Source of the DNA: Anaerolineae bacterium
GTDB taxonomy: Bacteria; Chloroflexota; Anaerolineae; Aggregatilineales; Phototrophicaceae
Direction: 5' to 3'
Assembly: GCA_034436915.1 (NCBI GenBank)
Contig: DAOTUR010000700.1
Span: 1-33,089 of the forward strand
DNA: 33,089 nucleotides
Made by a program: the position numbers and the translations under genes. Every line of letters starts with the position of its first letter. The stretch's first letter is position 1. Shown one piece after another: positions 691 to 32,816 of this stretch. Under the pieces are notes generated by a model. The model did not search any database and had not been told where the DNA came from. It saw only the letters and a program-made list of their open reading frames with translations.

Positions 691-738
691 GAAGCCGAAC
701 AAAATGACCCATATATCATCCTAAAATTGAGATTGGTC

Positions 739-4033: not shown

Positions 4034-4061
4034 AGGCGCATCGCCTGATTGAGAGAGTCCG

Positions 4062-15213: not shown

Positions 15214-15897
15214 TCACATCAGCAGGGTTTGCTGCGGGGGGCTGTTTGGTTCAAGCAGATTGGGCTGATCGACCCGCGCATTGTTCACCAGCGTCGACAC
15301 CTCATAAGTGTGCATGTGCTCTGGCGGATACGGCGTCAGCATATTCTTCAACACGGGCAGCGGCGTCTCGTCATCCAGCCAATCGCTGTATTGATCGGGC
15401 GGCAGAATCACGGCCATACGATGATGCATGGTCTTGATCAGGTCATTGGGTTCGCCCGTGATGATGGTACAGGAGAACACCATCTCACCAACGGGATTCT
15501 TCCAGGTCTCCCACAGTCCGGCAAAGGCGAAGACCTCGCGCTCATCCAGATAGATGTACTGAGGCCGCTTTTTATCGCCATCCTTGCGCCATTCATAAAA
15601 GCCATCCGCCGGAACCAGACAGCGGCGCTTCTTGAAGGCCGAGCGGAACGATGGTTTCTCTTCAATCGTCTCCGACCGCGCATTGATGAGCATACTCGCG
15701 CCCGATTCGTCCTTCGCCCACGAGGGAATCAGCCCCCACTTCACCCAGGTCAGGCTATCGCGGGCCTCTCCGGTGATGATCGGAACCATCTGCGTGGGCG
15801 CAATGTTATAACGCGGCGTCAAATTCGGCACGGCTTTGAGTTGAAACGCCATCTGGACAGCTTCGGGAGAAGCCGTGAGCGTATAACGTCCGCACAT
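15214..15897 (-). CDS. yedK: SOS response-associated peptidase (SRAP/DUF159, YedK/HMCES-like abasic-site processing protein)
   Basis: The protein starts MCGRY (catalytic Cys2). It also carries YNIAPTQ, LINARSETIEEKPSFRSAFKKRRCLVPADGFYEW and MHHRMAVIL, all hallmark SRAP motifs. Confidence 0.9.
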   Translation of the reverse strand: MCGRYTLTASPEAVQMAFQLKAVPNLTPRYNIAPTQMVPIITGEARDSLTWVKWGLIPSWAKDESGASMLINARSETIEEKPSFRSAFKKRRCLVPADGFYEWRKDGDKKRPQYIYLDEREVFAFAGLWETWKNPVGEMVFSCTIITGEPNDLIKTMHHRMAVILPPDQYSDWLDDETPLPVLKNMLTPYPPEHMHTYEVSTLVNNARVDQPNLLEPNSPPQQTLLM

Positions 15898-15899
15898 GG

Positions 15900-16139
15900 T
15901 TATTTCTTCCGGGGCCGATTGCTCTCCGCGATCTGACGAACTAACGTAATCGCAGACAAGGCGATGCCAATCATGGCCGGGGTCGAGATTTCCTGTTTTT
16001 CTCCATCATCAGCTTCATCCGCCGAACGATTGAACAGATAAGCACTGACCATGCCCATCAACCCGCCAAACAGCAGGCCCATCAAATAGTTACGGTTGCG
16101 CCACGAGTCATCCCCGCGGCGCGGAGTCACGTTGAACAT
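15900..16139 (-). CDS. Small membrane protein (79 aa), YtxH-like N-terminus
   Basis: A hydrophobic Gly-rich helix (YLMGLLFGGLMGMVSAYLF), an acidic linker and a second helix (PAMIGIALSAITLV). It sits 2-3 nt from both neighbours, which suggests an operon. Family resemblance is weak. Confidence 0.5.
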   Translation of the reverse strand: MFNVTPRRGDDSWRNRNYLMGLLFGGLMGMVSAYLFNRSADEADDGEKQEISTPAMIGIALSAITLVRQIAESNRPRKK

Positions 16140-16857: not shown

Positions 16858-19800
16858 ATGCAGCAACCCGCCCCACGCCGCGCTCTCATCTCGGTCAAAC
16901 GGATGTGTATGCTGGTTATGGCGTTGGCGCTTATGACGTTGATCATCCCACGATCCGCGTTATCAGCCCAGGATATCACTCCTGAACCAACGGCAGACGC
17001 CACCAGCGAATCGGTCATCAATACAGAAGCGCCCGTCATTTCAACGGACGTACCGACCCTGATCCCAACTGAGGCGGCTCCGGTTGCAACAGATGCCGCC
17101 GCGCTGCCAACAGAAGCGGCTCCCCTCCCCGTCGTAACGACAGAGGCCACGCTTGAGGCGACTGCTGCCGCCACTGTGGAACCGACGAGCGCTCTCCTGA
17201 CGAGCTTCGCCGACACCTTCACAGATTGGACGGGCGCAGGCTGGGATATCGTGGATTGGCTGGTGCAAACCACCGATGATGGCAGCGCCTTCCTCATCAC
17301 AGACAGCGCCACCGCCAGCGCCGTGATCCAGAATTTCCAACCCGCCGATTTCCAACTCACGACGCGGATGCGGATCACAGAAAATAATATTGCTGAAATT
17401 CTGGTGCGCTCCGGCCTGGAGAATGACCGTATTATCTTCAGCGCCCAGGGCGCAAGCCGCTTGTATCGCGGCGAGACGCTTCTGGCAGCCTCGGCCAGCG
17501 CCCCCCTGCCCCCGCCCATTGATGCGACAGCCGAACCGCAGTGGTTCACCGTCAGCATCACGGCAGCAGGCGGCACAATTGGCGTCAGCGTCAATGATGT
17601 GCCACAAATCGCCTACACCGATCCCCAGCCCCTCCCTGCGGGGATGATTGTGTTTAAGGCCAATGCCAATAACACGGGCGCGATTGCCCTCGACGACATT
17701 TCCGTCGTCACGATTGACCCGCTGACGGCTGTGATCGCCACACCCGCAGCCGCCCTGGATGTGAGCATCCCGACTGCCGAAGCCACTGCGGACGTTACGG
17801 CCCAGGCCACACTCGAAGCAACGGCAGACGCCACACTCGAAGCAACTGCCGAAGCTACGCTTGAGCCAACTGCCGAAGCTACATCGGAAGCGGCAGATCT
17901 GTCCACATCGATTGCAAAACTGCCCGAATCGCTGCACAGCGCCTTTGAGCTTTATGCAGCCGGCGATGTGGCGGGCGCAACGGCTATGCTGACAGAGCAA
18001 AGCGTTTATCCTGATGCCTACAGCCGTATTTACCTCATCGTGGCCTACGATGGGACTGAAAATATCGCGGGCCTCATCACCGATGATGGCGGTGAAATTA
18101 TCGCTCTTAACGGCACGACCATCAATGCCTATATCAAGCTTGAGACGGTGCTCAAACTGGCAAATAAAGCCTCTGTGACCAGTCTGTATCTGCCTGTAGC
18201 CGCCACCTCCACAGGCCCGATTGCCACAGGCAACGGTTCAGCGGATGGCAATGCCAATCTCGAATCCTTCGATGCGCTCGGCGCAACCGATTGGCACAAT
18301 GCCGGGGTTCAGGGATCAGGCATTGATATCGCCATCGTGGATACGGGCTTTGCGGCGAATGCAGCCCCTTACGCCAACCCGACCATCGGCGGCGATTTTG
18401 CCTGTTTGAAGCAGGCCACTGTGCTCTCGGGTCTGGACAACCAGCCCAATGCCAATCATGGTCGCAATGTTATCGAAGTCGTGTGCGATATTGCGCCGCA
18501 GTCGTCCGTCTATCTGTATCAGGCGATGGATTATGCCACCCTGGGCCGTGCGATTTACAAGGCGCGTACCAGAAGCCCCAAGCCCAGAATTATCCTGATC
18601 ACGATGGATCTGGGCGCAAGCGCCAGCCCCGGCGATGGCACGGGCAATGTCGCGTCTGACAGCCCGGCTGCGCCTGATCCTTACATTCAGATCCAGCAGG
18701 CCCACGATGAAGGCATCGTCGTCATCGCAGCAGCAGGCAACAGCGGCAACAATACGACTGACACACTTCAAACACGTTACATTGCCTATACCAACTCAGG
18801 CACAGGTACAGAAACTATTACGGTGCAGCCTTTGAGCGGCAAAGGGGCCGTGCATATAGGGATGCAATCAACCTCCTGGACAGGTATTCTCGCCGGAGAC
18901 TTACAGACAAGCATCCCTGCAATCTTTGCGGGAAGAGCCGCAGCAAGCGGTTTACCGACCACAACCGCCGGTGATTATTACACCTTTGATTGTACGAATC
19001 CCAATACCATCAACTGCCAGTTCCAGGTCACAGTGACGGCTATAATGGGCCGTGTCGTCCAGGTACAAGTCATCAATGGGACGTTGCCCGGCGCAAATCC
19101 AACAGGTCAAATTCCCACCGCAGGCAGTCTCGCCCGCCCTGCTGATTCGCCCTATGTCATCTCCGTCGGGGCTGTCTGCGCTGATTACAAGCAGAATTTC
19201 CCGGTGTATCCGCAGAGTGCTCGCGGCCCCGTTTATGGCCCCGATGGATCAGCGCCCTCTCTCCTGTCGCTGCCCGGTACGACAGCGCTGCCTCGCTCTC
19301 AGGTCAAGCCGGATGTGATGAGCTTCTCCAATGTTCGCACCTCCGCTGCCACCCCTGTTTTTGTGTTCAGTACACCCGGCTCCTGCACAGGCGGCTTCAG
19401 CGGCACATCGTCGGCGGCAGCGCATGTCGCGGGCATGGTCGCACTGATGGACTCCAACGCGGCCAATGAGAGCATGACGGCGGATACTTTTGTCAGCTTC
19501 AATCCCGATATTGTCCTGACGGGCAATCCGGCGGATGCTGTCGAAAATGTGCGCGATTACCTGCAAACGCACGCGGTGGAAATGCCGTATGGCACAGGCC
19601 CGGCAACCGCCCAGAGCGTTGACAATACCGACGAGAGTGACAGTAACAAGGCCAATTTCGTCGGGGCCAACGGCTATGATATGATCTATGGCGCGGGCCT
19701 GACGGTACTGGGTTCACCCAAATATGACCTCACCAAGTCTGTTAACTACACGGCGCTTCCCGATCACCTGCCGCAGACACAGGATGGCGATATCTGCCCC

Positions 19801-22800
19801 TCGCTGGTTTACGTCGGTCAGGAAAACCCCGGCGACAGCATCATGGATGGCACAATTCTCCATCCGTTCGTCAGTCTGGCCTACGCTTATAATCGTGCGC
19901 CTGCGGATGCCTGTATCATTGTGATGCCGGGCGAGTATGTGACATCACTGCTGCTCCAGCGCTACGGCATGGCTGATCCTGTTGGAAGCAATGCAACCGT
20001 CGTGACAGGCCGCAGCATCTACTCGTATGATGATGTGATGCTGGCCGATTATGCGCCCAGCATCTTCTGGATGAATACGCAGTATTTCAACCGTCACAAC
20101 AGCGCCATCTTTACGCCAGGTGGTCAGCAAACGTTCTTTGGAAGTTACTACGGGACAGCCCAAATCGTTATCGATGGACTGCCCCTCGCAAACTCCAATC
20201 GCACAGTCATCGGCGGCTTTACATTCCTCGCCACCCAGATGCTGGGGGCCATCAGTGCGGCAGGCAACACCAGCAATGCCTTCATTGATGAACCGCAGGG
20301 CATCATGCTGAGTGGGTCAAAGTCTGTAACGATCCGTAACAGCTCCTTCGGCGAAGCCGTCATTGATGGTGTGACCTACCCTGGCTACACCAATCTGCCC
20401 TTAATTGGCGTCAGCTCCACCATGATTCTGGCCCTCAATCAGAGCAACGGCCTGATCATGGATGGCAACCGCTTCGTCAACAATCACGTGGGCTATTCGT
20501 TCACGGGCGGCACGCGGCCTCCTGTCCTGTTTGTCGATAATTCCGGCATCAACAATGACCTGGGCTATGACACAGAGCGCGTGCGCTTCTCGCACAATCT
20601 GGTCCAGGCCAACGAGAATTTGAGCGACAGCACCAACACCTCGTGGGCACCGCTCATCAATGCCAATAGCAGCGCCATTGATATCACTGACAACATGTTC
20701 GTGCAGAACAGAGCGGAAACGCTCATCCGCACGGCCACCAGCAGCCCGACTGACGCGCTCGAAACCCGTATTCTGGGCAATATCTTCCTGAGCAACACCA
20801 TAGCGACTGTGGTGGGTGAAGGTGATTCGGGGCCGCTGATCAATCTGTTTTACGTCAAGTTTGTCAGCTTCATGAACAACACTGTCGTGAAGAATACCGT
20901 GACAAACGCCAAATACGGCACGCTGCTGCTGCGTGGCACGACCTCACCGGCCATTACAGGCACGGGCAGCATGATCAGCGACCTAGATCAAACCTGGAAC
21001 ATCCACAACAACATCATTTACAACAATCTGTTGGGTCGTGGCTTTGCCGATGATACGATCCGCAGCAAAGTGTCTACCTCGTATGAGTGCAAGAACACCA
21101 GCGGCGTCATTAACGCGGGCGCACAAAGAAACTGGGTCTTTGGCAACGGCCTCGATAACAGCGCCTGTGCCGGGGCGATTGCTCTTGCAGGCAATAATAA
21201 CAAGACCAATCTTGATCCCACGCCGTTCTTCCGGGGCACAACAACCTCAAATCCCGTGCTCGACCCGGTGGCAAATCCGGTCTACTATGCGCTGAACAGC
21301 CTTTGCCATGTCATCCCTGCTCCCACGACAGGGCCTTGTATCTCTGCCACATCTCTGGGCTTCGACGGTGTGGATGCGGGCGATACTACGCTCGGCGGCA
21401 CCGTTATCAATAGTCTTGATTTTAATCAGGATGTTGATGGCGGCGCTCGTGTCGTGGATGCCGACAATGGCGGCCTGACGCTTGACCTGGGAGCCTTCGA
21501 GTTTGAGACGTTGAAATTCGTCGCCGATCCCATGGTCATATCAGCTCCCGCAGGCCTGGAAGATACTGTCCTGGTCGTGAGCCTTGACACGCTGCGTTAT
21601 CTGGGTGGCCCGATTGTGACGGGTGGTTCGGGTTCGCTGTCGTTCGAGATTGTGACGTATCCCTCAGATTACGGCACACAGTGTACGGGCGGGACATTCA
21701 ATGATAGCAATCGTGGTGTCCAGATCATCGGCAAAATCCTCAAATACTGCCCGCCGCGTAACTTCTATACTGATCCGGCGGCTGGCTCTCTGGGCAATCC
21801 CAATGTCAGCGCCACCGATCCTGTCTCTCCCGCTGTCCCGCCCGTCGGTGTCCCCTATTGGCCGGATCAACTCAGCCTTACGTTCAAAGTGCGTGATGAG
21901 GCTGGACAGGTCACACAGGGATCACCTGCAACTCTCCAGATCAAAATTGATCCGGTTAATGATGCGCTGCTGAGTGGCAATTATAACTACGCCGTCACAA
22001 GCAGCCGTGCAACGATTGCTGTTCAACTCCGTCCCTACGTCAAGTTCACGCCTGCGGGCGCGACAATCAGCGCCTTCAATGTGGTGTATGCGCCCAAGAT
22101 CGGCAGCCAGTTCGCGGTTGATTTCCCGTACAACTACGTCAGCAGTGCGCCAACGATCATCAATGAGTCGGGTGATGCCCCCCTGTTCGATCAGACTGAA
22201 CTGACCAGTGCCTTCGGTCAGTTGCAGACGACCTTTACTGCTACGGGCAGAGCCGGGCTGATCTATCTCAGTGTCGTTCCAAATCAGACGGGGTACAAGA
22301 AATTCCAATACACCGTTGCTGATCGGAACGGCGGGACAGCCATCTACATTGTTACTATCCGTGTCGCCAGTACCATTCCCAACAACGGTTTGTATGACAA
22401 TACCAGCTTCGCCTTTGTCTACGACGATGCGGTTCTCAACGAGAACGATACGCCCGACAACACCAACATCACAATGGGCAAGTGGGAAAGATTAGGCGCG
22501 GCCAACGCGATCAACAATACGCTGCATCGCACCTCAACCCTCAATGATCAGTTCAGCGTTGAGTATAAAGGGACAGGCTTCGTGCTGTATATGCGTTCCA
22601 GCGGTTCGGGCAGCAGTGACTTCTCTATTGAGATTCTCAATAACGATGTTACTAAGGCGATGACACCCTGGACAACACTCGTCGGCGGCATCGCGGGCGT
22701 CACCACCGATGATCTGCGTAAATCAGATATCACAGGCGGCGGTCTGTGCTACACCCGTGCGCCGATTGCCGGCACAGTCGCTGTTCCACAGCCCACTCTC

Positions 22801-25800
22801 CTCAATGGGAACATCACCAACGGCGTCGATGTCAACTTCACGATCACATGCCAGGATATGCCTGTCTTACCCAACAGCTATACCGTGCGGGTGAAGAATA
22901 AGAAGGCGGGCTATTATCTCGTGGTGGATGCCATCAGCATTCTGAATCCGGCGTCTCTGTTGGGCAGCGTGCTGACCCCTGGCTACTATGATGTGGATGC
23001 CAAGCTGGTGCGTGATATCTTCGATGTGCCCGCCACATGGCAGCCCATCACCAATATGCCCGCCACACCCACAGTTCGCTATTCCAATCTTGTGGCGATG
23101 CAAACCACATCGCTCAATCCGGCTCCCATCACGTTTAAAGTGCATAACGCCACAGGCTTTGCGATTGAAACGACCTTAGAACCGAAATCGCCCTCCTACA
23201 ATATCTGTATCAATGAGGTGGGCCTGCCAACGCCGAAGCTGTGCCAGAAGTTCAATAACACCAGCACCCTGCTGGTAAACAATATCTTCCGCCCCTTCTA
23301 CGGATTGGATCTCAGCAAAGACTACGACGTCACCATCAGCATTGATGCACCAATGCCAGCAGGCGGACGCTTTGTCATCGACTCGATCACCGTGTTCGGT
23401 GACAACATCCTGCCGTCTGGCCCGCTGCCCCTGAGCAATATCGATGATCTGCGGATGGACTGGTTCGTCCTGGGCGGGGGTCGTGAAGATGCCTGGGCCT
23501 TGAGCGGTGTCGCTGCGGCGGCTACCTCTCTCGGCCAGACGCTCACGACATCTTCACCCGCAGGGACAGGCCGCTATGTCGGGCCGTTCCTGGGCTTCGA
23601 GATGCCGCAAGAGGCTGATGCCTTCATCCTGAAGTACACCTATGCCACGACCCTGAGTACCCAGTGGATGATCTGCGTGGATCGCACCCAACTGGCAACG
23701 GCCTATGGCAACTGCATCCAAGTCAATCCGCTTGCAACGGCCCTGCTGCCAACATATCAGATCAGCAGCACCACGACAGGAGCGCTTAAACCTGCAACCG
23801 TCTCCGTCATGACCAGCGGCCCCGTCAGCAATCAACCGCTGCAAGGCTCTCTGATCATCCGCAGCAACATGTTCGATGTTCCCTGGGGGACGGGCAGCAA
23901 TCACACCGTCGAAATTTACAGCCTGGCAAATGCGCCAATAAACTTCGACGTGATCACGCCGCTGGATACCACCGCCAGCCTCACACCCGGCGGCTATGAA
24001 GAAATTACACCCGGCCTGCATTACTTCACCAGCACGTTCACTGAGTCGCCGACTTTCTCCAAGCTGGTGACAGACCCCTGGACACTGCTGACGCTGGCAA
24101 GCTATTCCGGCAGTGGAGCCATGCAGACCAAGCAGCAAAATGCGAGCGTGGCCTTCAATATGGTGGGCGCGACAGGCTTTGCGCCGCGTCTCCAGCTCTC
24201 CACCTCAACTGATGTGCTGAAGGTGTGCTGGGCGGCCTCAGTGAATGCCGTCTTGATTAATACGGCGCGTGTTCAGGACGTGTTGAACAACACAGGCGGC
24301 GTCAACAGTCAGTGCCGCCTGATCGATACTGAATCACTGACTCCGGTCTACAAGGTGGATCGTCCGTTCTTTGGCTTTGATCCTAGCAAGAATTACACGG
24401 TTGTCGTGCAGACGATTGGCGATACGTTTACGCCTGCGCCTCGCGTGGCTCCCATCACACTCATATGGGATGGTCTGACGATCTTCGGCGCGGAGTATGA
24501 TCTAACAAATCTTCAGACTCTCGCGGCCAATGTCGTGAACGAGTTCAGCTTCAAGAATCGCGTGGCTGACAACAAGTTCCTCTACTTTGGCTCAACCTGG
24601 GCCACTCGTGAAGCTGGTCTCGCAGCGGGTCGCTCTGCCCTCAATTACGATACGGCAACGGGCATGGGATCAAGCGTGCTGTTCAAAGTCAGCAGCAGCA
24701 GTTCATCGGATGCGCTGGTCTTCCTGCGCGATACGGCGACCACATCCAGTGACCTGGAAGTGTGCGCGACAAAAGATGACTACAGCGTGCGAACCTGTGC
24801 CACGATTGAATCCAATACCATCGCAGGCGTCAAGGTTCCTGCGGTCTTCCATATGCCGGGGTCAGGTAACTACATCGTCAGCGTAACGGCCATGAGCAAT
24901 GCAGCAATCTCAATCGATACGGTGCAGTATGTTCCGGTCATCACGCCAGAACTGCCCGCAGGCCGCTTTGAAGATACCGATCCGCGTTTGGTCTATGATC
25001 AGAATGCGACCAATCTGGTCTTCAACGGCAGTATGGAAGGGATCTCACCGCTCACGCCGCTTGGATGGAGCACACAGGGAACGTCAACGCTGGCTGTAGG
25101 CGCAACGCCAATCTATGCAGGCACGAAGTCGCTGCGTATCTCTGGCTTTACCGCAGGCAGCGGTGTAAGAAGCTCAACCTTTAGTCTTCAGGCGAACACA
25201 AGCTACGCCGTTGTGGGGCGTGTCCTCACGACAGCCAAGTTCGGCGCAACCATCACGATGGAAGTGCGTCAGGGCGTAACGCTGTTGGCCTCAAAATCGC
25301 TGGATATCAGCACCGTCAATACCGCTCTCGCTGTCAACACCTGGCAACCGCTGCGAATTGACTACACACCCACCATCAGCACGCTGACAGGTGTTGACGT
25401 TCGCCTCGTCATCTCGCAGCCCAATCCGCTCCTCATCCCCCTAACCTATATCTATGTGGATGATGTCTCCGTGACCGAGGGAAGCGCCTGGGATGTCTAT
25501 CCTGGAATCACCTACAGCGGTGGCACGCTCACACGCAGCAATTCGCATGGCGCACAGATGACGTTCTCGTTCGATGGAACGGGCTTCAATCTGGCGACTG
25601 TCGCGGATACGTTGGGCGGCAAGTTTGAAATCTGCTACGGCGCAGGCTCAACACTGCCGGCCTCGCCCACCTGCATGACCTATGTCAATGAAGCGGCAAC
25701 CGCCTCGCGCACGCTCACACGCGGCGTCACGGGTTTGAGCAAGCAGATCTATACCGTGCGCGTGCGTGATATCGAAGAAGGCTATGTCGATACGGCGTCT

Positions 25801-28800
25801 GCCCTCACGAACGTCATCACACGGACAGCCATCTTACGGGTAGGACGGATTGGCATCGACTTCATCGAAGTCTATGATGCACTTCTGCCCTCCCCTATCA
25901 CCATCTCCACCAGCACAACCTCCACCACGATCAGCGATAATGCTGTCGATGGCGGCGGCGCACGTTACATTCAACTTCTGCCCTCTAACCGTTGGAACAC
26001 CCTGACGGGTACACTGGCCGTTGGGCGTAGCGGCGGAACCGTAGCGGCGCAGGTTGATCCTGTTACAAGCGCGATCACGACCCTCGATGGCGGCACTGTG
26101 GCGCAGTTCCGCATCAACGTAGCGGGGACGCAGGATGTCCATCTGGTCGTCTACACAGGCACAGGTGCGGGCTACAGCAGCACGATCCTGGCTTGCGTGG
26201 ACGCCGTGTCCGGCGACCTGAATTATGACAATGTGCTCAAGCGCCAGATCAGCGTAGGGTCAACATCTAACTGTACTGTTGTAACTCTCATCCCCAATCT
26301 GCCCTTCTTCGGCCTGAACAAGAACATGATCACCGCGTTGGGCAATGTGAGCGGGACACACACCATCACGCTGCGGACGCTGACGCCGGGCTACTTCTAT
26401 ATCGATCATGTCACCGTGTTGTATGGCAACAATCTCATCCCTGGCTACTACGAAAATAGCCAGGCTGTGACCGCTGCGGATCTGATGAGCGATACAACAC
26501 CCTTGACCGCAAACTGGACAGCGGAAGCCAATGTCGCCTACAGTGGCGGTTATGCGCTCACAACGACAGTTGTGACGCCTGCCGAAGTGCTTGCACTGCA
26601 TCTCAAGGCCAGCACGGGTCTTACAGTTTTCACGGCCAGCGGCGGGATCAATCGCGGCATCACGCTCAATGTGTATGCTGCTACGGACCTGACAACCATT
26701 CTGTACACCAAGAGCGTCCTCTTCCCGACTTCGCCTGCGGTCACTTACAAAGTGCCTGTCACGCTGGCGGGTCTGCCTCTGGCTGACTACATCGTGACCA
26801 TCGCCCTGAACATGCCGACGAATCCACCGCTGCCTGCACCACAAATCACCACAGGCAAGCTGACAGTGGATGCGGTTGAAGTCTATGGGGCATTGCAGCA
26901 GTTGGGCAGCCTCTATGATGATGCGTCGGTGACACCTGCTGGCGTACCCTATCTCACCTATACACCCAACACCAATGCCGCGTGGACAACCGTCAGCGGC
27001 GCAACAGCAGTGGGCTATCTCAACCTGACTTACCATCAGACGAATCTGCTGGATGCAGGTGTCGCCTTCGGCGTCGCCTCTCCCAACGCTCAAGGTTTGA
27101 TCCTGCGTTACGGTGCAACGACCAATACCAGCGTCAAAGTGTGTGTGACGGATGCCTCTGATGCCAGAACTTGCAGCACCGATATTGTGCTGCTGGGTAG
27201 CGCTGGCAAATCGAAGGTCATCAGCTTTACAAATCCGACGTTCGCAACCGCACCAGGGGTTGGGCCCTACAGCGTCTCTATCGTGAATGCCCTTCCAGCC
27301 AAGATTTTCACACTGGATGCGGTGCAGGTTCTCGAAGCTGGCGCGTTGGCGGAGGGCATTTATGATGCCATCTTCCTCAAGTCAGCCACAGCACCTACGA
27401 TCCTGAATGGCACATGGACAACGCCAACCGCTGCGGCGAACAGCAGCAGCGGTACGCCTAGCTCATATGTTGAATTCACGTTCACAGGTATTGGCTTCAG
27501 CCTCGTCTTGAACGAGACAACACTGACGGCCAGCACCTACACGCTGTGCGTGCAGGCCGGATCATTGCCCTGTACAACACCTGCGGCGTTCAATGAGCAC
27601 ACGGCAACCATCAATCGCGGGGCTGCCGGAGATTACGCGCTGACCGTGACGGGCTTGCACCTCAGCAGCACCGACGCTACATATACGGTGCGCGTCGTCA
27701 ATACGACCCCTCCTCCGGGCACAAGCAATCTCACTGTCAAGTCGCTGCATATCCTTGGCTCTCGTCCGGGGGTAATGCTCGACTCAACCAGTGGGCGTAT
27801 CGAAAATACCGATCCGCGTCTGCGCTATCTACCCTTCGGCTCGCTGACAGATACTGTCATCAAGGTCGCGCCGACTCCGTCAGGTTTCAGCCAGCACCAG
27901 GGCATTTTGCGTGGGGCAGGCGTGTACTTCGAGTTCCAGGGCGGCGGTTTTGAATATGGTCGTCAGACAGCCGCAACGGAAAGCGCCTATAACTACTGCT
28001 ACGGCGTCGTCACAACGAGCGGCACACCCAACTATACCTGTGTACCAACCGCGCCACAGCAAGCCAACCAGCTTAATACGGCCTTGCCCGGTATGCAGCG
28101 TATCAACGTGATCAATACGGGCGCAACCTGCCAGACCGTCACCTGTTGGGTGCGTCTTTACAGCACCGAAGCCAAGCTTCTCCCAGTGGACTTCATTCGT
28201 ATCGTCGATGATATCCCCCTGACAATGGGAACCTACGAAGAAGGCAATCCGGCCTTCCATACCGTGCGCGACTTTGGTGGCTCAAGTTACGTGTTTGATG
28301 ATGCTGCACTCAACACCTCGGTTGTAAACACGTTTACGCTGGCATCTGGTGGCTATGTGCGCCAGTTCTCAGGGATAGCTGCAAGCGGCAAAGTTTCGGC
28401 GCTGAACGGCGGTCTGGCCTTCACCTTCCGTGGGACGGGCTTTGGGATCAACTTTGTCCGCAACGCCTTCGCCGATGCTGTCCAGATCTGCTATCGGGCA
28501 CGCTCCACCAATGCCGCTATCGCAGAGGCTGATATCCCGATTATCATCAGCAGTGGAACGTGTGTTGTCTACGATAACTACTCTACAACTGTGCTCTACA
28601 ATCAGGTTCGTGCGATCCAGGGCCTGCCCGAAGGGAATTACGGCGTCTTTGTGCAGATGTTGGGAGACAACTACCGCCTGCCCAATACTGTGACGCCGCA
28701 AACACATAGCACGACACAGCTTCCCATCCAGATGGTGATTGATAATGTCACCGTGTTCAATGATCCCTGGTACAACGCCATCACCAACACCAGTTGGGAT

Positions 28801-31755
28801 ACCCCGACGGATGCGGCGCTCCAGGTTCTCAAGCCCGGCACCGTCTACGAGCCAAGCTACGTGAATCGCGTCGCCCAGAATCAGTTCCTGTATAACGGCC
28901 CCTGGTCAACACTGGCTGTTGTAGGCGGCTTTGCAGATCGTGTGGCGCTCACCGGATCAAGTATGCTGTTCCGCACGTCCGGCGCATCAGGCATGATCCT
29001 GTATGTGACGGCGGCGGCGGCAAATGGCCCGGTTCAGGTGTGTGCTCACCCGATCAACACCACCATCACGCCAGCCGTTCTGGAAGATCCGACGGTAGAA
29101 AACACTCACTGCCAGACGCTGCAAACACGCGGGACAGGCAATCGCTATGCCCTGCCCTTCCGCTTTGTTGATGGCGATAAAAGTGAGTATTCAGTGTCGA
29201 TTGTGACACTGGAAAATGCCCTCGTCCAAATCGATGCCATCGAACTGATCGATACAACAGTTGCCATGACAGCGGGGACGTATGAATCCACCTCACCGTT
29301 CATCAAGTACAGTGAGTTCACCCCGTCCGACACAGCTCTCGCCAACGGCGGCTTCTCCGGCACAACACCCTGTGCAGGTTGGGCGGCAGATGGATTGCCT
29401 CTGCCTGTTCCCACTCTCTATACGCTTTATGCCGATGCGCCGACGAGCTGCCTGCTCACAACGACAGTCCTGAATCAAGGGATCATCAGCCCGGCGTTCA
29501 CGCTCCAGGCAGGTACGAAATACACCCTTGTCGCCCGTGTTTACATCATTGCGAGTCGGGTCAGCGCGGGCATCCAGATGGAAGCCAATGGCAGTGTCGG
29601 TATCACCCCCCAAACGGAAACCCGTACAGGCGGTTGGTATACCTTGCGCCAGGAGTTCCTTGCGACCAGCAGTGCGCCCGTATCGTTACGCTTCAAGCGG
29701 ACTCTGCCTACCTCGGTTGGCACAGTCCAGTTTGCAATAGATGGATTGTGGCTCATCCCTGAAGGTCGTGGACAGTGGGATCAGATCTATGCAACGGCCT
29801 ACTCTGCGACCAGCGCCATGCGGAGCCAGACGCCGGGCGCACAGGTGACGTTCCGCTTCAATGGCACAGGCTTTGCAGTCAAGATGCCGACGGACGCAAA
29901 TTCCGGTGAAGTGGAAATCTGCTACGGCACAGCGCCCAACCCGACGGCCCCCTGCTTCACCTATCAGCAGGACAGCACCGCGCCGACCTACGATGTGAGC
30001 CGTGTCGTGGCAGGACTTCCGCTCGGCAACTACTATGTTCGCATCACCGAAAAAGACGATGGCATGTCTGGGGCAACCGCCCTGCCAACGCCGCGCATCC
30101 CGCTCGGCATCACCATCGACAGCGTGACAATCTTTGGCGCAGAATCAATCCCGGCTGATATCACACAGATCGGGCAGTACGAGCAGAATGCCAAGAATAA
30201 CTCTGGCACGCCGTATCTGGTGAAAGTGCCAACGCTCAACTGGCGCGACTTCGCCGCAGCGACTTGGACGGGCGGCACAGCCAGCCAAGTCACAACAACA
30301 GCAGGTGTGGCCTCAATCACCAATGCAGGCGCGACGGTGGTGATGAGACTGAGCAACAGCCTGACCAATCCGACGGTGATTCTGTACAACCGTGTGCCGA
30401 CGAACCAGAGCAGCACGCTGTTGATCTGCGCGGCCAGCGATCCGGCACCAAACCAATTGAAGCCGAATATCGTGGGCGGTGTTGTTTGGACAGGCACGGT
30501 CTTCCAATTGAATTCAGCTTCGACTGATAAATGTGTGATCCACAACCTGAAGTCAGGTAATCAGGTGATTCTGTCGGCCACATCGACGGCGGGCAGCCCG
30601 GAACTCAAGCTGACAGCTCTTGGCGATCTTGGCTACAAGATCATCACATTCACCACACTGACACCGGGTGGCTTTAACGTCGATGCCTTTGAAGTGATCG
30701 ATGGCGTGCTGCTACCTGCGGGTCTCCATGACCAGATCAAGCCGGACGCCCAACTGAACTTCAATAACTCAGGCAATAATCCGGCCAGTGCGCTGAGTAC
30801 AGATCCGAAGTGTAATCCACGCTATGGATGGTGTACCTTAAAATTAGCGTCCTACTACGGCGGCTCAACCGCCACAACGCGCCAACCGGGCGCGAATCTG
30901 AAATTCTCCTTCCAGGGATCAGGCTTCTCGATCCTGTCATCACTCAGTGTGTATGGATCTGACATGCGGATTTGTCTGGCTCCCAGCAATGTCGCAAATC
31001 CGTTCCCACCGGACAATCGTGTTTACTACGGCAACCCGACGGGTCTCTTCGAGACATGGTGTGATGTCGTCACAACCAAACTCAACGCTGTGGAATGGGA
31101 TGCCAAGAATCCGGATCGTATCTTTCCAGCGGTCTCGCCATCTGGTTATTACCAGTATGGGTTTGCCTATTATGGGTTGGTCGCTGGTAGCTATCAGGTT
31201 GAAGTGAAGCTCATTGATGTCTCAATGGGTCTGAACGACTCGCTGACCATCGATGCTGTGGCCGTGTTCGGGGGTGATCCCACGCTGCTTGAGGCGGATG
31301 GACGCACATCTAATCTGTTCGATGATCGGCAGTCGCAGATCGTCTATGAACCTGCCGTGAACTGGACAGCGCTCGCAGCGACAACGCAGCCGCCGTTCTT
31401 CAAAACCGAGATGAAAGCCAACAACGCAGGCAGTATTGTCCGTCTGAGAGTTGAGGGCAATGCCATCACGATTTATCAGACGATGGCCACGGATCGCGTG
31501 GTCGGTTTCGCCGTTGTCCCCAGTAACACCCGTGATGTGCGTGTGTGTTTGATGGTCGGCGATGGGCCAATCCCGTGTGAACCGGAAGCCGTAGAAATCG
31601 GCGAACGGACCACAACCAGCTATCGCCAGAGCAATTTCAATGGCGCAGGTATCCCGATCTTGATCTACGGTCTGGGGGTCGGTGAACATAATCTCATCAT
31701 TGAGAATCGTGATACTCGTGCGATGTCGATTGATGCCTTCCGTGTTCATCCGTAA
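16858..31755 (+). CDS. Giant secreted multidomain protein (4,965 aa): LamG-like + subtilase S8 + parallel beta-helix + cadherin-like x2 + 19 lectin/CBM-like modules
   Basis: A single ORF with no stop for 14,898 nt. GGAGG (16848-16852) lies 5 nt before the ATG. The Sec-type signal peptide is MQQPAPRRALISVKRMCMLVMALALMTLIIPRSALSA/QD. Domain motifs are listed in the sub-features. A strong intrinsic terminator lies 30 nt after the stop. Confidence 0.9.
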   Translation: MQQPAPRRALISVKRMCMLVMALALMTLIIPRSALSAQDITPEPTADATSESVINTEAPVISTDVPTLIPTEAAPVATDAAALPTEAAPLPVVTTEATLEATAAATVEPTSALLTSFADTFTDWTGAGWDIVDWLVQTTDDGSAFLITDSATASAVIQNFQPADFQLTTRMRITENNIAEILVRSGLENDRIIFSAQGASRLYRGETLLAASASAPLPPPIDATAEPQWFTVSITAAGGTIGVSVNDVPQIAYTDPQPLPAGMIVFKANANNTGAIALDDISVVTIDPLTAVIATPAAALDVSIPTAEATADVTAQATLEATADATLEATAEATLEPTAEATSEAADLSTSIAKLPESLHSAFELYAAGDVAGATAMLTEQSVYPDAYSRIYLIVAYDGTENIAGLITDDGGEIIALNGTTINAYIKLETVLKLANKASVTSLYLPVAATSTGPIATGNGSADGNANLESFDALGATDWHNAGVQGSGIDIAIVDTGFAANAAPYANPTIGGDFACLKQATVLSGLDNQPNANHGRNVIEVVCDIAPQSSVYLYQAMDYATLGRAIYKARTRSPKPRIILITMDLGASASPGDGTGNVASDSPAAPDPYIQIQQAHDEGIVVIAAAGNSGNNTTDTLQTRYIAYTNSGTGTETITVQPLSGKGAVHIGMQSTSWTGILAGDLQTSIPAIFAGRAAASGLPTTTAGDYYTFDCTNPNTINCQFQVTVTAIMGRVVQVQVINGTLPGANPTGQIPTAGSLARPADSPYVISVGAVCADYKQNFPVYPQSARGPVYGPDGSAPSLLSLPGTTALPRSQVKPDVMSFSNVRTSAATPVFVFSTPGSCTGGFSGTSSAAAHVAGMVALMDSNAANESMTADTFVSFNPDIVLTGNPADAVENVRDYLQTHAVEMPYGTGPATAQSVDNTDESDSNKANFVGANGYDMIYGAGLTVLGSPKYDLTKSVNYTALPDHLPQTQDGDICPSLVYVGQENPGDSIMDGTILHPFVSLAYAYNRAPADACIIVMPGEYVTSLLLQRYGMADPVGSNATVVTGRSIYSYDDVMLADYAPSIFWMNTQYFNRHNSAIFTPGGQQTFFGSYYGTAQIVIDGLPLANSNRTVIGGFTFLATQMLGAISAAGNTSNAFIDEPQGIMLSGSKSVTIRNSSFGEAVIDGVTYPGYTNLPLIGVSSTMILALNQSNGLIMDGNRFVNNHVGYSFTGGTRPPVLFVDNSGINNDLGYDTERVRFSHNLVQANENLSDSTNTSWAPLINANSSAIDITDNMFVQNRAETLIRTATSSPTDALETRILGNIFLSNTIATVVGEGDSGPLINLFYVKFVSFMNNTVVKNTVTNAKYGTLLLRGTTSPAITGTGSMISDLDQTWNIHNNIIYNNLLGRGFADDTIRSKVSTSYECKNTSGVINAGAQRNWVFGNGLDNSACAGAIALAGNNNKTNLDPTPFFRGTTTSNPVLDPVANPVYYALNSLCHVIPAPTTGPCISATSLGFDGVDAGDTTLGGTVINSLDFNQDVDGGARVVDADNGGLTLDLGAFEFETLKFVADPMVISAPAGLEDTVLVVSLDTLRYLGGPIVTGGSGSLSFEIVTYPSDYGTQCTGGTFNDSNRGVQIIGKILKYCPPRNFYTDPAAGSLGNPNVSATDPVSPAVPPVGVPYWPDQLSLTFKVRDEAGQVTQGSPATLQIKIDPVNDALLSGNYNYAVTSSRATIAVQLRPYVKFTPAGATISAFNVVYAPKIGSQFAVDFPYNYVSSAPTIINESGDAPLFDQTELTSAFGQLQTTFTATGRAGLIYLSVVPNQTGYKKFQYTVADRNGGTAIYIVTIRVASTIPNNGLYDNTSFAFVYDDAVLNENDTPDNTNITMGKWERLGAANAINNTLHRTSTLNDQFSVEYKGTGFVLYMRSSGSGSSDFSIEILNNDVTKAMTPWTTLVGGIAGVTTDDLRKSDITGGGLCYTRAPIAGTVAVPQPTLLNGNITNGVDVNFTITCQDMPVLPNSYTVRVKNKKAGYYLVVDAISILNPASLLGSVLTPGYYDVDAKLVRDIFDVPATWQPITNMPATPTVRYSNLVAMQTTSLNPAPITFKVHNATGFAIETTLEPKSPSYNICINEVGLPTPKLCQKFNNTSTLLVNNIFRPFYGLDLSKDYDVTISIDAPMPAGGRFVIDSITVFGDNILPSGPLPLSNIDDLRMDWFVLGGGREDAWALSGVAAAATSLGQTLTTSSPAGTGRYVGPFLGFEMPQEADAFILKYTYATTLSTQWMICVDRTQLATAYGNCIQVNPLATALLPTYQISSTTTGALKPATVSVMTSGPVSNQPLQGSLIIRSNMFDVPWGTGSNHTVEIYSLANAPINFDVITPLDTTASLTPGGYEEITPGLHYFTSTFTESPTFSKLVTDPWTLLTLASYSGSGAMQTKQQNASVAFNMVGATGFAPRLQLSTSTDVLKVCWAASVNAVLINTARVQDVLNNTGGVNSQCRLIDTESLTPVYKVDRPFFGFDPSKNYTVVVQTIGDTFTPAPRVAPITLIWDGLTIFGAEYDLTNLQTLAANVVNEFSFKNRVADNKFLYFGSTWATREAGLAAGRSALNYDTATGMGSSVLFKVSSSSSSDALVFLRDTATTSSDLEVCATKDDYSVRTCATIESNTIAGVKVPAVFHMPGSGNYIVSVTAMSNAAISIDTVQYVPVITPELPAGRFEDTDPRLVYDQNATNLVFNGSMEGISPLTPLGWSTQGTSTLAVGATPIYAGTKSLRISGFTAGSGVRSSTFSLQANTSYAVVGRVLTTAKFGATITMEVRQGVTLLASKSLDISTVNTALAVNTWQPLRIDYTPTISTLTGVDVRLVISQPNPLLIPLTYIYVDDVSVTEGSAWDVYPGITYSGGTLTRSNSHGAQMTFSFDGTGFNLATVADTLGGKFEICYGAGSTLPASPTCMTYVNEAATASRTLTRGVTGLSKQIYTVRVRDIEEGYVDTASALTNVITRTAILRVGRIGIDFIEVYDALLPSPITISTSTTSTTISDNAVDGGGARYIQLLPSNRWNTLTGTLAVGRSGGTVAAQVDPVTSAITTLDGGTVAQFRINVAGTQDVHLVVYTGTGAGYSSTILACVDAVSGDLNYDNVLKRQISVGSTSNCTVVTLIPNLPFFGLNKNMITALGNVSGTHTITLRTLTPGYFYIDHVTVLYGNNLIPGYYENSQAVTAADLMSDTTPLTANWTAEANVAYSGGYALTTTVVTPAEVLALHLKASTGLTVFTASGGINRGITLNVYAATDLTTILYTKSVLFPTSPAVTYKVPVTLAGLPLADYIVTIALNMPTNPPLPAPQITTGKLTVDAVEVYGALQQLGSLYDDASVTPAGVPYLTYTPNTNAAWTTVSGATAVGYLNLTYHQTNLLDAGVAFGVASPNAQGLILRYGATTNTSVKVCVTDASDARTCSTDIVLLGSAGKSKVISFTNPTFATAPGVGPYSVSIVNALPAKIFTLDAVQVLEAGALAEGIYDAIFLKSATAPTILNGTWTTPTAAANSSSGTPSSYVEFTFTGIGFSLVLNETTLTASTYTLCVQAGSLPCTTPAAFNEHTATINRGAAGDYALTVTGLHLSSTDATYTVRVVNTTPPPGTSNLTVKSLHILGSRPGVMLDSTSGRIENTDPRLRYLPFGSLTDTVIKVAPTPSGFSQHQGILRGAGVYFEFQGGGFEYGRQTAATESAYNYCYGVVTTSGTPNYTCVPTAPQQANQLNTALPGMQRINVINTGATCQTVTCWVRLYSTEAKLLPVDFIRIVDDIPLTMGTYEEGNPAFHTVRDFGGSSYVFDDAALNTSVVNTFTLASGGYVRQFSGIAASGKVSALNGGLAFTFRGTGFGINFVRNAFADAVQICYRARSTNAAIAEADIPIIISSGTCVVYDNYSTTVLYNQVRAIQGLPEGNYGVFVQMLGDNYRLPNTVTPQTHSTTQLPIQMVIDNVTVFNDPWYNAITNTSWDTPTDAALQVLKPGTVYEPSYVNRVAQNQFLYNGPWSTLAVVGGFADRVALTGSSMLFRTSGASGMILYVTAAAANGPVQVCAHPINTTITPAVLEDPTVENTHCQTLQTRGTGNRYALPFRFVDGDKSEYSVSIVTLENALVQIDAIELIDTTVAMTAGTYESTSPFIKYSEFTPSDTALANGGFSGTTPCAGWAADGLPLPVPTLYTLYADAPTSCLLTTTVLNQGIISPAFTLQAGTKYTLVARVYIIASRVSAGIQMEANGSVGITPQTETRTGGWYTLRQEFLATSSAPVSLRFKRTLPTSVGTVQFAIDGLWLIPEGRGQWDQIYATAYSATSAMRSQTPGAQVTFRFNGTGFAVKMPTDANSGEVEICYGTAPNPTAPCFTYQQDSTAPTYDVSRVVAGLPLGNYYVRITEKDDGMSGATALPTPRIPLGITIDSVTIFGAESIPADITQIGQYEQNAKNNSGTPYLVKVPTLNWRDFAAATWTGGTASQVTTTAGVASITNAGATVVMRLSNSLTNPTVILYNRVPTNQSSTLLICAASDPAPNQLKPNIVGGVVWTGTVFQLNSASTDKCVIHNLKSGNQVILSATSTAGSPELKLTALGDLGYKIITFTTLTPGGFNVDAFEVIDGVLLPAGLHDQIKPDAQLNFNNSGNNPASALSTDPKCNPRYGWCTLKLASYYGGSTATTRQPGANLKFSFQGSGFSILSSLSVYGSDMRICLAPSNVANPFPPDNRVYYGNPTGLFETWCDVVTTKLNAVEWDAKNPDRIFPAVSPSGYYQYGFAYYGLVAGSYQVEVKLIDVSMGLNDSLTIDAVAVFGGDPTLLEADGRTSNLFDDRQSQIVYEPAVNWTALAATTQPPFFKTEMKANNAGSIVRLRVEGNAITIYQTMATDRVVGFAVVPSNTRDVRVCLMVGDGPIPCEPEAVEIGERTTTSYRQSNFNGAGIPILIYGLGVGEHNLIIENRDTRAMSIDAFRVHP
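17191..17728 (+). other. Domain of giant protein: LamG/DUF1080-like concanavalin-type jelly roll (aa ~112-290)
   Basis: FADTFTDWTGAGWDIVDW...FQLTTRMRITENNIAEILVRSG...WFTVSITAAGGTIGVSVNDVPQIAY...GMIVFKANANNTGAIALDDISVV. The pattern resembles Laminin_G_3/DUF1080. It is flanked by T/A/E/P-rich linkers. Confidence 0.5.
17806..17901 (+). repeat. Four tandem 24-nt coding repeats (ATLEATAD/ATLEATAE/ATLEPTAE/ATSEAADL linker)
   Basis: The units are GCCACACTCGAAGCAACGGCAGAC (17806-17829), GCCACACTCGAAGCAACTGCCGAA (17830-17853), GCTACGCTTGAGCCAACTGCCGAA (17854-17877), and a degenerate fourth (17878-17901). A related partial unit lies just upstream from about 17773. Confidence 0.6.
17905..19715 (+). other. 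Domain of giant protein: subtilase prodomain-like segment plus peptidase S8 catalytic domain
   Basis: The prodomain-like segment is RIYLIVAYDGTENIAGLITDDGGEIIALNGTTINAYIKLETVLKLANKASV. Asp495 sits in IAIVDTGF (18340-18342) and His534 in NANHGRNV (18457-18459). Asn628 sits in AAAGNSGN (18739-18741) and Ser851 in FSGTSSAAAHVAGMVALM (19408-19410). The domain ends near MIYGAGLTVLG. Confidence 0.8.
19795..21507 (+). other. Domain of giant protein: right-handed parallel beta-helix (PbH1-type repeats)
   Basis: The N-terminal cap is DGTILHPFVSLAYAYNRAPADACIIVMPGEY. Successive coils include VTIRNSSFGEAVIDG, LIMDGNRFVNNHVGY, VRFSHNLVQANENL, IDITDNMFVQNRAE, RILGNIFLSNTIA, VSFMNNTVVKNTV and WNIHNNIIYNNLLG. 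The C-terminal cap is LDLGAFEFE. Confidence 0.75.
21508..22371 (+). other. Domain of giant protein: two cadherin-like/Ig-like domains
   Basis: The first domain reads LSLTFKVRDEAGQVTQGSPATLQIKIDPVNDA. The second reads GYKKFQYTVADRNGGTAIYIVTIRVAS. These are the usual bacterial cadherin-like end strands. Confidence 0.55.
22372..31752 (+). other. Domain array of giant protein: 19 contiguous ~125-190-aa beta-sandwich (CBM/lectin-like) modules, including two CBM4_9-like units (24937-25482 and 29254-29766)
   Basis: Each module opens with G-x-[YF]-[DE]-[DEN] and closes with a hydrophobic-D-x-hydrophobic-x-V strand (VVDAISILN, IDSITVFGD, IDFIEVYD, IDHVTVLYG, VDAVEVYG, LDAVQVLE, IDNVTVFND, IDAIELID, IDSVTIFGA, VDAFEVIDG, IDAVAVFGG, IDAFRVHP). 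Many carry F-x-F-x-G-x-G-F and a Cys pair. Boundaries are approximate, about +/-30 nt. Confidence 0.65.
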
Positions 31756-31784: not shown

Positions 31785-31821
31785 CACAGCCGCCCCTCAA
31801 TTTGAGGGGCGGCTGTGTTTT
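31785..31821 (+). terminator. Rho-independent terminator of the giant gene
   Basis: CACAGCCGCCCCTC (31785-31798) pairs perfectly with GAGGGGCGGCTGTG (31804-31817), a 14-bp GC-rich stem with loop AATTT. It is followed by TTTT (31818-31821), 30 nt after the TAA stop. Confidence 0.85.
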
Positions 31822-31904
31822 ACGCTGTATTCGATGCTTGGTTCACACGAATTATCCCCTACAATAACTCGCCAAATTGCTCATTCTCTTTAAGAGGAGT
31901 TGTT

Positions 31905-32816
31905 ATGCCTGTCTCTCTCATTTACTCCGATGAAGTCGCTTATGCTCGCGCTCATGGGCAGCCGATTGTGGCTCTCGAATCGACCTTGATTACACACGGC
32001 CTGCCATATCCCGCCAATCGTGATACCGCCCTGGCGATGGAACAGGCCGTGCGCGATGCAGGCGCTGTCCCTGCCACAATTGCGCTTTTAAACGGACAGG
32101 TAAGGGTGGGTCTGACGACGGAACAGGTCGATATGCTGGCCCAAAAGCCCGCAGGCAGCGTCCGCAAGTGCAGCCGCCGCGATCTGCCCATCGCCATTGG
32201 CCTGGGGGAAGACGCCGCCACCACCGTCGCCGGAACCATGATCGTCGCACATTGGGCCGGAATTCCGATCTTTGCGACAGGCGGTATTGGCGGCGTACAT
32301 CGCGGCCACCCCTGGGATGTCTCTGCTGATCTCATCGAACTTGGACGCACCCCGGTGGCCGTCATCTGCGCCGGAGCAAAGTCAATTCTCGATCTGCCGC
32401 TCACGCTTGAGGTGCTGGAAACCCAAGGTGTGCCGATTATTGGCTTTCGCATGGACACCCTGCCAGCCTTTTACACGCGCAGCAGCGGCCTGCCTGTTGA
32501 TGCCTGCGTTCAGACGGAAGCGCAGGCGGCTCGGATTATCCATGCGGCCCATATGATTGAGGCCCAACATGGCCTTCTCATCACCGTGCCTGTGCCGGAG
32601 GCCGATGCCCTCAGCGCTGAGGTTGCAGAGGCCGCAATTGAGCAGGCCACTCAGGAAGCCGATGCACATGGCATTCATGGCAAAGCCCTGACACCCTATG
32701 TGTTGAGCCGCGTCGTTGAGCTGACGGGCGGGGCTTCGCTGCGAGCCAATCGCGCTTTACTGATCAACAACGCCGCGACTGCCGCCCGCATTGCGGTGGA
32801 ATTGGCGCATATGTAA
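31905..32816 (+). CDS. psuG: Pseudouridine-5'-phosphate glycosidase
   Basis: IVALESTLITHGLPYPAN, ATGGIGGVHRGHPWDVSADLIELGRTPVAVICAGAKSILD and GVPIIGF are hallmark PsuG motifs. AAGAGGAG (31892-31899) lies 5 nt before the ATG at 31905. The ORF-track start at 31815 overlaps the upstream terminator. Confidence 0.9.
   Translation: MPVSLIYSDEVAYARAHGQPIVALESTLITHGLPYPANRDTALAMEQAVRDAGAVPATIALLNGQVRVGLTTEQVDMLAQKPAGSVRKCSRRDLPIAIGLGEDAATTVAGTMIVAHWAGIPIFATGGIGGVHRGHPWDVSADLIELGRTPVAVICAGAKSILDLPLTLEVLETQGVPIIGFRMDTLPAFYTRSSGLPVDACVQTEAQAARIIHAAHMIEAQHGLLITVPVPEADALSAEVAEAAIEQATQEADAHGIHGKALTPYVLSRVVELTGGASLRANRALLINNAATAARIAVELAHM

Follow-up and report, generated by a model that had tools for sequence, protein, structure and literature searches.

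A giant secreted subtilase protein of Anaerolineae with an array of diverged, probably disulfide-stapled jelly-roll modules and two apparently nested CBM4_9 domains

CE2_N is the N-terminal jelly roll of the CE2 acetyl esterases (2WAA, 2WAO, 6HFZ), built of four plus five strands (PMC9487903), and it recurs as tandem repeats in cohesin-bearing proteins. Comparable beta-sandwiches are found among the carbohydrate-binding modules (CBMs) CBM6, CBM35 and CBM36, and consecutive CBM-like jelly rolls occur in the C-terminal part of Cry1 protoxins and in Vip3. Giant repeat adhesins such as MpIBP, SiiE and LapA are long extracellular proteins in which tandem beta-sandwich modules make up most of the length and functional domains sit at one terminus; their extender repeats are Ig-like, near-identical and variable in number, and usually depend on type I secretion. 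Here we analyse a 33,089-nucleotide stretch of an Anaerolineae bacterium (contig DAOTUR010000700.1 of assembly GCA_034436915.1), hereafter the window, which encodes a giant protein (Table 1). Its C-terminal 3,127 aa (aa 1839–4965) had been parsed in an earlier note into nineteen contiguous, possibly lectin-like units, referred to below as M01 to M19. With moderate confidence, we read the array as 17 diverged, disulfide-stapled jelly rolls, two of them with a nested CBM4_9, which form an extracellular scaffold carrying a subtilase. By exact look-up, the window protein is not on record, and literature searches on giant proteins of Anaerolineae, on PF17996 and on the jelly rolls of CE2 yielded nothing specific.

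The boundaries and shared motifs of the array are largely as proposed before. All 19 module ends fall on codon boundaries within the single open reading frame (ORF) 16858–31755, and the start at aa 1839 is right, since hidden Markov models (HMMs) of the modules match nothing comparable upstream. Relative to 500 residue shuffles of the 3,127 aa, the opening motif G.[YF][DE] was observed 12 times (1.5 ± 1.2 expected), the closing strand h-D-x-h-x-h (h, hydrophobic) 21 times (4.6 ± 2.1 expected) and the GTGF-type motif 10 times (0.14 expected); the last is absent from aa 1–1838. The start motif, said to open nearly every unit, is present in its strict form in 10 of the 19, and the remainder carry degenerate variants. 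The end strand, claimed for every unit, lies 2–4 residues from the boundary in 17 of the 19, the exceptions being M03 (FDVITP) and M11 (K for D). About half of the units do carry the GTGF-type motif, which is clear in M01, M02, M04, M07, M11, M12, M13, M16 and M18 and degenerate in M09, and all strings quoted for it were located.

Homology between the units was addressed by two methods. All-against-all phmmer linked many of the units, with M07 and M16 as the best pair (1.6e-18) and M05 and M14 (7e-12) as a further example. Per-module profiles, cut from a global alignment of 20 full-length proteins (see below), were compared by hhalign with reversed profiles as control (best score 23.8, probability 11.4%). 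The units align beyond chance: 120 of the 171 pairs exceed the best reversed control, and all units fall into a single connected component. Modules of the GTGF type match one another mostly at 94–100% probability, those lacking the motif at 93–100%, and matches across the two groups reach 93–98% (M01–M19 98%, M02–M10 96%, M13–M14 96%); the modules are mutually only 12–25% identical. Both cysteines of the Cys pair align between the groups, ‘qICY...C’ with ‘vqVCa...C’, so that the two subtypes represent one module type. The earlier note had confined the Cys pair to the GTGF subtype and assigned a separate ‘VxVC’ strand to the other. That strand is the ‘EICY’ strand with the same Cys pair, and 16 of the 17 non-CBM4_9 units have the pair (one each, two in M12 and M18, none in M09). 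Seven module copies have lost the GTGF turn.

The module Cys pairs are invariant in 20 of 20 orthologues (18–19 of 20 for M11), and the two Cys of the CBM4_9 unit M15 are not conserved among them. In an AlphaFold2 (AF2) model of M16, the pair sits on two consecutive strands (residues 48–54 and 63–67, DSSP). Outside the cell it would form a stabilising disulfide that closes a loop of variable length. The loops closed in this way are the least conserved parts of the modules (22% identity vs 34% elsewhere) and differ in length among orthologues, which speaks more for a stabilising staple that encloses a free surface loop than for a conserved binding site. Modules of other, shorter proteins also have this Cys pair, for instance 8 of 9 modules of P0060; it is absent from the repeats of the P0002 type, introduced below. 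In the three most distant orthologues (P0035, P0044, P0039), extra short Cys-x(6-8)-Cys inserts are seen within and before the module aligned with M16 (window 29767–30141); examples such as CTGKGKKQVC and CTKIKKGNC suggest additional small disulfide loops.

Two of the nineteen units, M06 and M15, had been likened to CBM4_9 and placed in tandem with the others. For M06 this is borne out by a match to PF02018 (32.9 bits alone and 37.1 bits in the whole protein, Pfam cutoff 25.9); M15 reaches 16.5 bits, below the cutoff, and is a clear paralogue of M06 (hhalign 100%, score 271). A PDB sequence search found no solved relative of M06. The tandem placement did not hold. Both units resemble the other modules only in their first ~20 residues, a G-x-Y-E...p-x-h-x-Y hairpin, and the modules that directly follow them, M07 and M16, are the only ones of the GTGF type without an N-terminal hairpin. 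When the opening 24 aa of M15 are placed before M16, or those of M06 before M07, the resulting chimeras match M13, M04, M09 and M02 over their full length at 98.6–99.9% (99.2–99.9% for the M07 chimera), and a bona fide CE2_N repeat, hairpin included, at 97.4–97.5%. A natural counterpart exists in the orthologue P0022, from which precisely the CBM4_9 portion of M15 is missing, the retained 21 aa (...PLTSGTHQNTNPAITYHS) being fused straight to GGGWQTV... of M16. The chimera alignments and this natural deletion argue for CBM4_9 domains that are nested rather than tandem. In an AF2 model of the four units M13–M16 (pLDDT 78.9, pTM 0.73), the hairpin has a pLDDT of 82–91 and the start of the insert 56–61. 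The array thus looks like 17 modules, two of which (M07 and M16) host a complete CBM4_9 after the first beta-hairpin, and not like 19 tandem beads; what persists of the nineteen-unit parse is a series of motifs and homologies beyond chance. The absence of linkers is only approximate, as some modules of the four-module model open with a low-confidence connector of 5–25 aa. Elsewhere CBM4_9 is appended to an enzyme, whereas here it is inserted within another jelly-roll module.

A second level of order is evident from the hhalign scores as a function of module offset. The mean score at offset 9 is 172, and all other offsets give 23–62. The individual pairs M04–M13, M05–M14, M07–M16 and M08–M17 score 247, 260, 288 and 287, and M09–M18 scores 114; among the outer units, M10–M19 scores 87, M01–M19 78 and M01–M10 66. 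Best-hit swaps in orthologues concern M04/13, 05/14, 06/15, 07/16 and 08/17. This pattern marks the array as a block of nine units that was duplicated in tandem long ago (M01–M09 and M10–M18), with M19 in addition. No residual similarity was detected between M03 and M12 by hhalign, hence that super-repeat position is uncertain.

The arrangement is old and strictly maintained. With the ten GTGF-type units as queries, an exhaustive HMM search yielded 410 cluster representatives (E ≤ 1e-3), about 20 of which are full-length proteins of 4.7–5.4 kaa, collinear over 96–100% of the window protein at ~30% identity. The 19 units are found in all 20 of these proteins in the same order (occupancy ~0.9, 25–40% identity), with the CBM4_9 of P0022 as the exception, and module copy number does not vary among them. 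Relatives whose loci were located, with a 5-sequence alignment, all lie in metagenome-assembled genomes (MAGs) of Anaerolineae, and the orthologues carry the name ‘hypothetical protein’. A recent repeat expansion was considered and rejected, given the low mutual identity of the modules and the orthologous conservation of each. The array differs from the Ig-repeat adhesins in that its jelly rolls are only 12–25% identical and fixed in number and order, and in that the protein has a Sec signal peptide and no C-terminal type I signal.

For the 17 modules, NCBIfam contained no relevant family. Pfam returned CBM_4_9 plus a sub-threshold CE2_N (PF17996) signal at M16, with 15.3 bits in the whole protein, E = 7e-4 for the module alone and 19.4 bits with the hairpin; the other 16 modules gave no Pfam match to CE2_N. 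Addition of the hairpin leaves M16 below the cutoff because the CE2_N profile starts after it. The Pfam models of CBM6 and CBM35 matched none of the modules at E ≤ 1, and in PDB profile searches the module profile A1 found nothing and A2 only 2vzp (CBM35 of CsxA) at E = 2.9. A word-indexed protein search with M13–M16 recovered P0001, a 58%-identical orthologue fragment spanning M14–M17, and P0002 as sole matches, and none with the M16 orthologue alignment. P0002 consists of a cohesin domain and seven ~130-aa repeats that score 133 bits with CE2_N (Pfam), and the module profiles match these repeats by hhalign at 93% (M04), 96% (M07, M09 and M16) and 95% (M13). Moreover, the module profile's weaker and remote matches belong to Pfam CE2_N, and some of these proteins have the same Cys pair. 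At the level of sequence profiles, remote homology to the CE2_N-type repeat as the nearest described family is solid. Partial matches to the module profile (13–27) were also noted in two unrelated giants, P0065 (5,149 aa, JGI name ‘fibronectin type 3 domain-containing protein’) and P0041 (2,733 aa), so that CE2_N-like modules recur in other very large proteins.

Structure prediction agrees with this assignment. The AF2 model of M16, calculated with 16 orthologues, shows nine strands (pLDDT 90.2, pTM 0.81), and Foldseek against the PDB places it closest to BT_2959 (3nqh, TM 0.69; all TM scores query-normalised), followed by the CE2 esterases 6hfz (0.66), 2waa (0.61) and 2wao (0.52), CBM6 (0.45–0.57), CBM35 (0.52) and CBM36 (0.51; 0.45–0.58 over CBM6/35/36), and a Cry1 protoxin (0.54). 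The jelly rolls of the CBM6/35 kind anticipated in the earlier note are thus recovered; Ig, fibronectin and cadherin identities were rejected, being supported by neither Pfam nor Foldseek. With CE2_N the modules share the motif order (G-x-Y-E hairpin, W, YSxG, FxFxGTGF, GL..G.Y.V.V, final h-D-x-h-x-h), the nine-stranded jelly roll and head-to-tail arrays. They differ in that the ‘vyIDG’ strand of CE2_N is replaced by ‘eICYg...C’ with the invariant Cys pair closing a variable loop, and the window array has neither an SGNH esterase nor a cohesin as partner, while two of its modules host CBM4_9. CBM6, CBM35 and CBM36 share the sandwich topology and the first (YE...) and last (...D-x-h-x-V) strands, whereas sequence matches are not significant and their calcium and ligand sites are not identifiable in the modules. 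The modules are a divergent, unannotated branch of the known galactose-binding-domain-like superfamily (CBM6, CBM35, CE2_N), with a known fold. Of the suggestion that they form an undescribed family, it stands that no curated model or PDB sequence matches the 17 modules; a relationship to CE2_N has been found, with every module below Pfam cutoffs and hhalign to CE2_N repeats at 93–97.5%.

The N-terminal half of the protein provides the rest of the domain map. In nearly all of the 20 orthologues, the N-terminus is a hydrophobic stretch; a conserved A-Q-E-[AV]-T and a segment rich in Pro, Thr, Glu and Ala come next. Downstream, the score for the 3keto-disac_hyd domain rises from 21.6 bits in the window to 25.7 bits in orthologue P0012, both just below the Pfam cutoff of 26.8. 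The Asp-His-Ser triad residues of the subtilase are invariant in 20 of 20 orthologues; a PDB sequence search with the subtilase region gave a single weak match. The region after the subtilase (aa ~1100–1500) has repeats of the N-x-h-x-x-N type, which are typical of right-handed beta-helices, and is tentatively read as such; it is without Pfam match, and aa 1001–1838 found no useful match among PDB sequences. Cysteines in this half (aa 1–1838, window 16858–22371) are mostly invariant in the 20 orthologues (516/543, 774, 980/1019, 1411/1437, 1609/1631) and even in number, as expected for an exported protein. An SGNH or GDSL esterase domain was not found in the 4,965 aa (Pfam, NCBIfam). All orthologues end with the last module strand (...sIDAi.Vq.), and no C-terminal membrane or wall anchor is present in the 20 ends compared.

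Table 1 Features of the giant protein and its module array (window positions; Cys numbers refer to the giant protein)
Feature	Position	Strand	Basis
Giant ORF, secreted multidomain protein (4,965 aa, stop codon present)	16858..31755	+	ORF reading, 14.9 kb
Sec-type signal peptide, aa 1–37, cleavage site inferred between ...SALSA and QD	16858..16968	+	orthologue N-termini
Weak 3keto-disac_hyd domain (DUF1080-like, ConA-type), aa 120–279	17215..17694	+	Pfam, 21.6 bits
Subtilase (Peptidase_S8), triad D495, H534, S851	18310..19617	+	PF00082, 37.4 bits vs 21.8 cutoff
Super-repeat 1, units M01–M09 (8 modules, one with nested CBM4_9)	22372..26889	+	hhalign offset 9
Super-repeat 2, units M10–M18	26890..31275	+	hhalign offset 9
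M01, GTGF type, Cys 1964/1998; best partners M19, M10	22372..22947	+	motifs, hhalign
M02, GTGF type, Cys 2117/2129	22948..23403	+	motifs, hhalign
M03, GTGF absent, Cys 2273/2286; hhalign to M08, M17 94–95%	23404..23967	+	
M04, GTGF type, Cys 2457/2486; M13 paralogue	23968..24492	+	phmmer, hhalign
M05, GTGF absent, Cys 2636/2647; M14 paralogue	24493..24936	+	phmmer, hhalign
Apparent N-terminal beta-hairpin (AGRFEDTDPRLVYDQ) of module M07	24937..24999	+	hhalign of hairpin+M07 chimera
CBM4_9, apparently nested in M07 (earlier M06 minus hairpin)	25000..25482	+	PF02018; hhalign to M15 100%
M07 body, GTGF type, Cys 2926/2939; M16 paralogue	25483..25878	+	phmmer, hhalign
M08, GTGF absent, Cys 3113/3139; M17 paralogue	25879..26427	+	phmmer, hhalign
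M09, degenerate GTGF (ASTGL), Cys-free; M18 paralogue	26428..26889	+	motifs, hhalign
M10, GTGF absent, Cys 3429/3439; related to M01, M19	26890..27336	+	hhalign
M11, GTGF type (GIGF), Cys 3564/3572; K replaces D in end strand	27337..27762	+	
M12, GTGF type (GGGF), two invariant Cys pairs	27763..28212	+	motifs, orthologue alignment
M13, GTGF type, Cys 3878/3902	28213..28764	+	motifs; part of AF2 model
M14, GTGF absent, Cys 4062/4085, both aligned with M13 Cys	28765..29253	+	
Apparent N-terminal beta-hairpin (AGTYESTSPFIKYSE) of module M16	29254..29316	+	orthologue P0022, chimera hhalign
CBM4_9, apparently nested in M16	29317..29766	+	PF02018, 16.5 bits; hhalign to M06 100%
M16 body, GTGF type, Cys 4355/4366; best conserved module	29767..30141	+	AF2, weak CE2_N match
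M17, GTGF absent, Cys 4524/4559	30142..30705	+	hhalign
M18, GTGF type, two invariant Cys pairs	30706..31275	+	motifs, orthologue alignment
M19, GTGF absent, Cys 4897/4907; protein ends at M19 last strand	31276..31752	+	

Taken together, these data are best described by the scaffold reading, which we hold to be probable, though by no means certain. The Sec signal peptide would export the giant protein. Outside the cell, the modules may act as a disulfide-stabilised and position-specific scaffold, not as an interchangeable spacer, and would carry the N-terminal subtilase and the beta-helix-like head. The two equivalently placed CBM4_9 inserts, rather than the 17 modules, would be the likeliest glycan-binding sites; they could hold the protease on a polysaccharide surface or direct it there, and this surface might be the envelope or sheath of the cell itself or material from outside. 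Several observations weigh against this picture. All 17 modules fail the CE2_N cutoff (at most 19.4 vs 27.9 bits, Pfam), and the Foldseek E-values of M16 are weak (5e-5 to 5e-3). The PF02018 match of M15, which covers profile positions 6–127, remains below the cutoff, and the orthologue P0022 does without this second CBM4_9, so that the insert is dispensable. Finally, the neighbouring genes (housekeeping, with only psuG syntenic) give no functional hint.

The array might instead be a multivalent lectin, in which most or all of the 17 modules would bind carbohydrate as an undescribed CBM family and act by avidity on polysaccharide. This proposal draws on the analogy with CBM6, CBM35, CBM36 and the CE2 N-terminal domain, whose fold the modules share; the last is said to shape substrate binding (PMC9487903). 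In addition, conserved W, YSGG and R/E/D positions recur from module to module and in repeats of the CE2_N type. However, the positions conserved among orthologues are mostly Gly, Cys, hydrophobic or turn residues, the Cys-closed loops are the least conserved parts and vary in length, and no CBM family model matches the modules. In the matches to Cry1 and Vip3, the same fold serves roles other than that of a lectin, and on balance we regard a lectin of this kind as unlikely.

Those matches lead to another alternative. Foldseek with the M13–M16 model retrieved multi-jelly-roll CBM-like proteins, including Cry1 protoxins, the GH101 enzyme EngBF, Vip3, tandem CBM22 and CBM4 (CBM4/CBM22 entries 3k4z, 2y64, 3jxs and 4xup), with the Cry1 C-terminal and Vip3 domains as best multi-domain matches (E ~1e-12 to 1e-9). 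Like the giant protein, these are large secreted proteins with several jelly rolls in a row, yet sequence identity is 8–11%, two to three domains stand against 17, and the setting is that of insecticidal crystals. By analogy with the tails of Cry1 protoxins, whose CBM-like domains serve packing and not sugar binding, the modules could pack within or between molecules and self-assemble into the sheath, surface layer or fibre of a filamentous cell. The fixed number and order of the modules, each position being separately conserved at ~30% identity in 20 orthologues, would suit such a role, as would the high pTM of the four-module model (0.73), the full-length Cry1 protoxins at the top of the multi-domain matches and the lack of a membrane or wall anchor. 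Conversely, a conserved, active-looking subtilase and a beta-helix head are unexpected in a purely structural subunit, and partner genes are not conserved nearby. We consider self-assembly just as improbable as the lectin. A bolder combination, in which the array would be neither passive spacer nor simple string of lectins but the position-specific unit of an undescribed extracellular superstructure of filamentous Anaerolineae (a sheath or surface fibre, for example), with each 9-unit super-repeat displaying one nested CBM4_9 at a fixed spacing, hypervariable disulfide-closed loops on the exposed face and the attached subtilase processing or remodelling the structure, is quite a long shot. Least plausible of all, to the point of being very unlikely, is that there is nothing distinct here and the modules are ordinary members of CE2_N or of a recent entry (PF27224, PF27462) missed by the Pfam copy used: P0002 does have both entries among its precomputed domains besides CE2_N, and P0060, with its Cys-pair modules, scores 92.8 bits in total for CE2_N (Pfam), but P0001 has no precomputed Pfam domain, every window module stays below the CE2_N cutoff, NCBIfam is empty and the orthologues are named ‘hypothetical protein’.

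The genes around the giant ORF comprise an ABC transporter set, rpoD, S1, ftsK, GT4, SRAP and psuG. A functional operon with these neighbours was rejected, as the flanks are housekeeping and only psuG is common to one relative. The psuG gene (pseudouridine-5'-phosphate glycosidase type, Indigoidine_A; 31815–32816, +) lies directly 3' of the giant gene; the Anaerolineae MAG locus L005 (12077–13966) has the same Indigoidine_A gene, followed by a PfkB kinase, and the neighbours in L001 differ. This is local synteny without an obvious functional link. Further upstream in the window, an ABC ATPase, an ABC-2 permease, a GldG-like ABC_transp_aux protein (DUF4350, DUF7088) and a DUF4340 protein are encoded at 727–4667 (+), a four-gene set that we take to resemble the gliding-associated GldA/F/G transporters and that may merit attention in the genome of a filamentous member of the Chloroflexota. 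A full-length RpoD-type sigma-70 (regions 1.1 to 4) is encoded at 5175–6593 (+); two genes 3' of it, a 638-aa protein (8016–9932, +) has a weak C-terminal sigma-70 region 4 as its sole Pfam signal. The SRAP (SOS-response-associated peptidase) gene at 15214–15897 (-) is overlapped by an ORF at 15229–15936 (+) that matches no family and is likely to be spurious.

The corrected domain map consists of a subtilase head and 17 Cys-stapled CE2_N-like jelly rolls in a duplicated 9-unit block, with, apparently, two CBM4_9 nested in modules. The nesting of a CBM in a jelly roll, together with a natural insert-free orthologue, would make a neat system for the study of domain insertion. More broadly, the analysis defines a conserved and entirely unannotated family of giant secreted proteins in the Anaerolineae, filamentous bacteria that abound in sludge and sediments and are poorly cultured. 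In each of these proteins ~3,000 residues escape the current models of Pfam and NCBIfam, and with a model of their own, hundreds of metagenomic proteins would be annotated.

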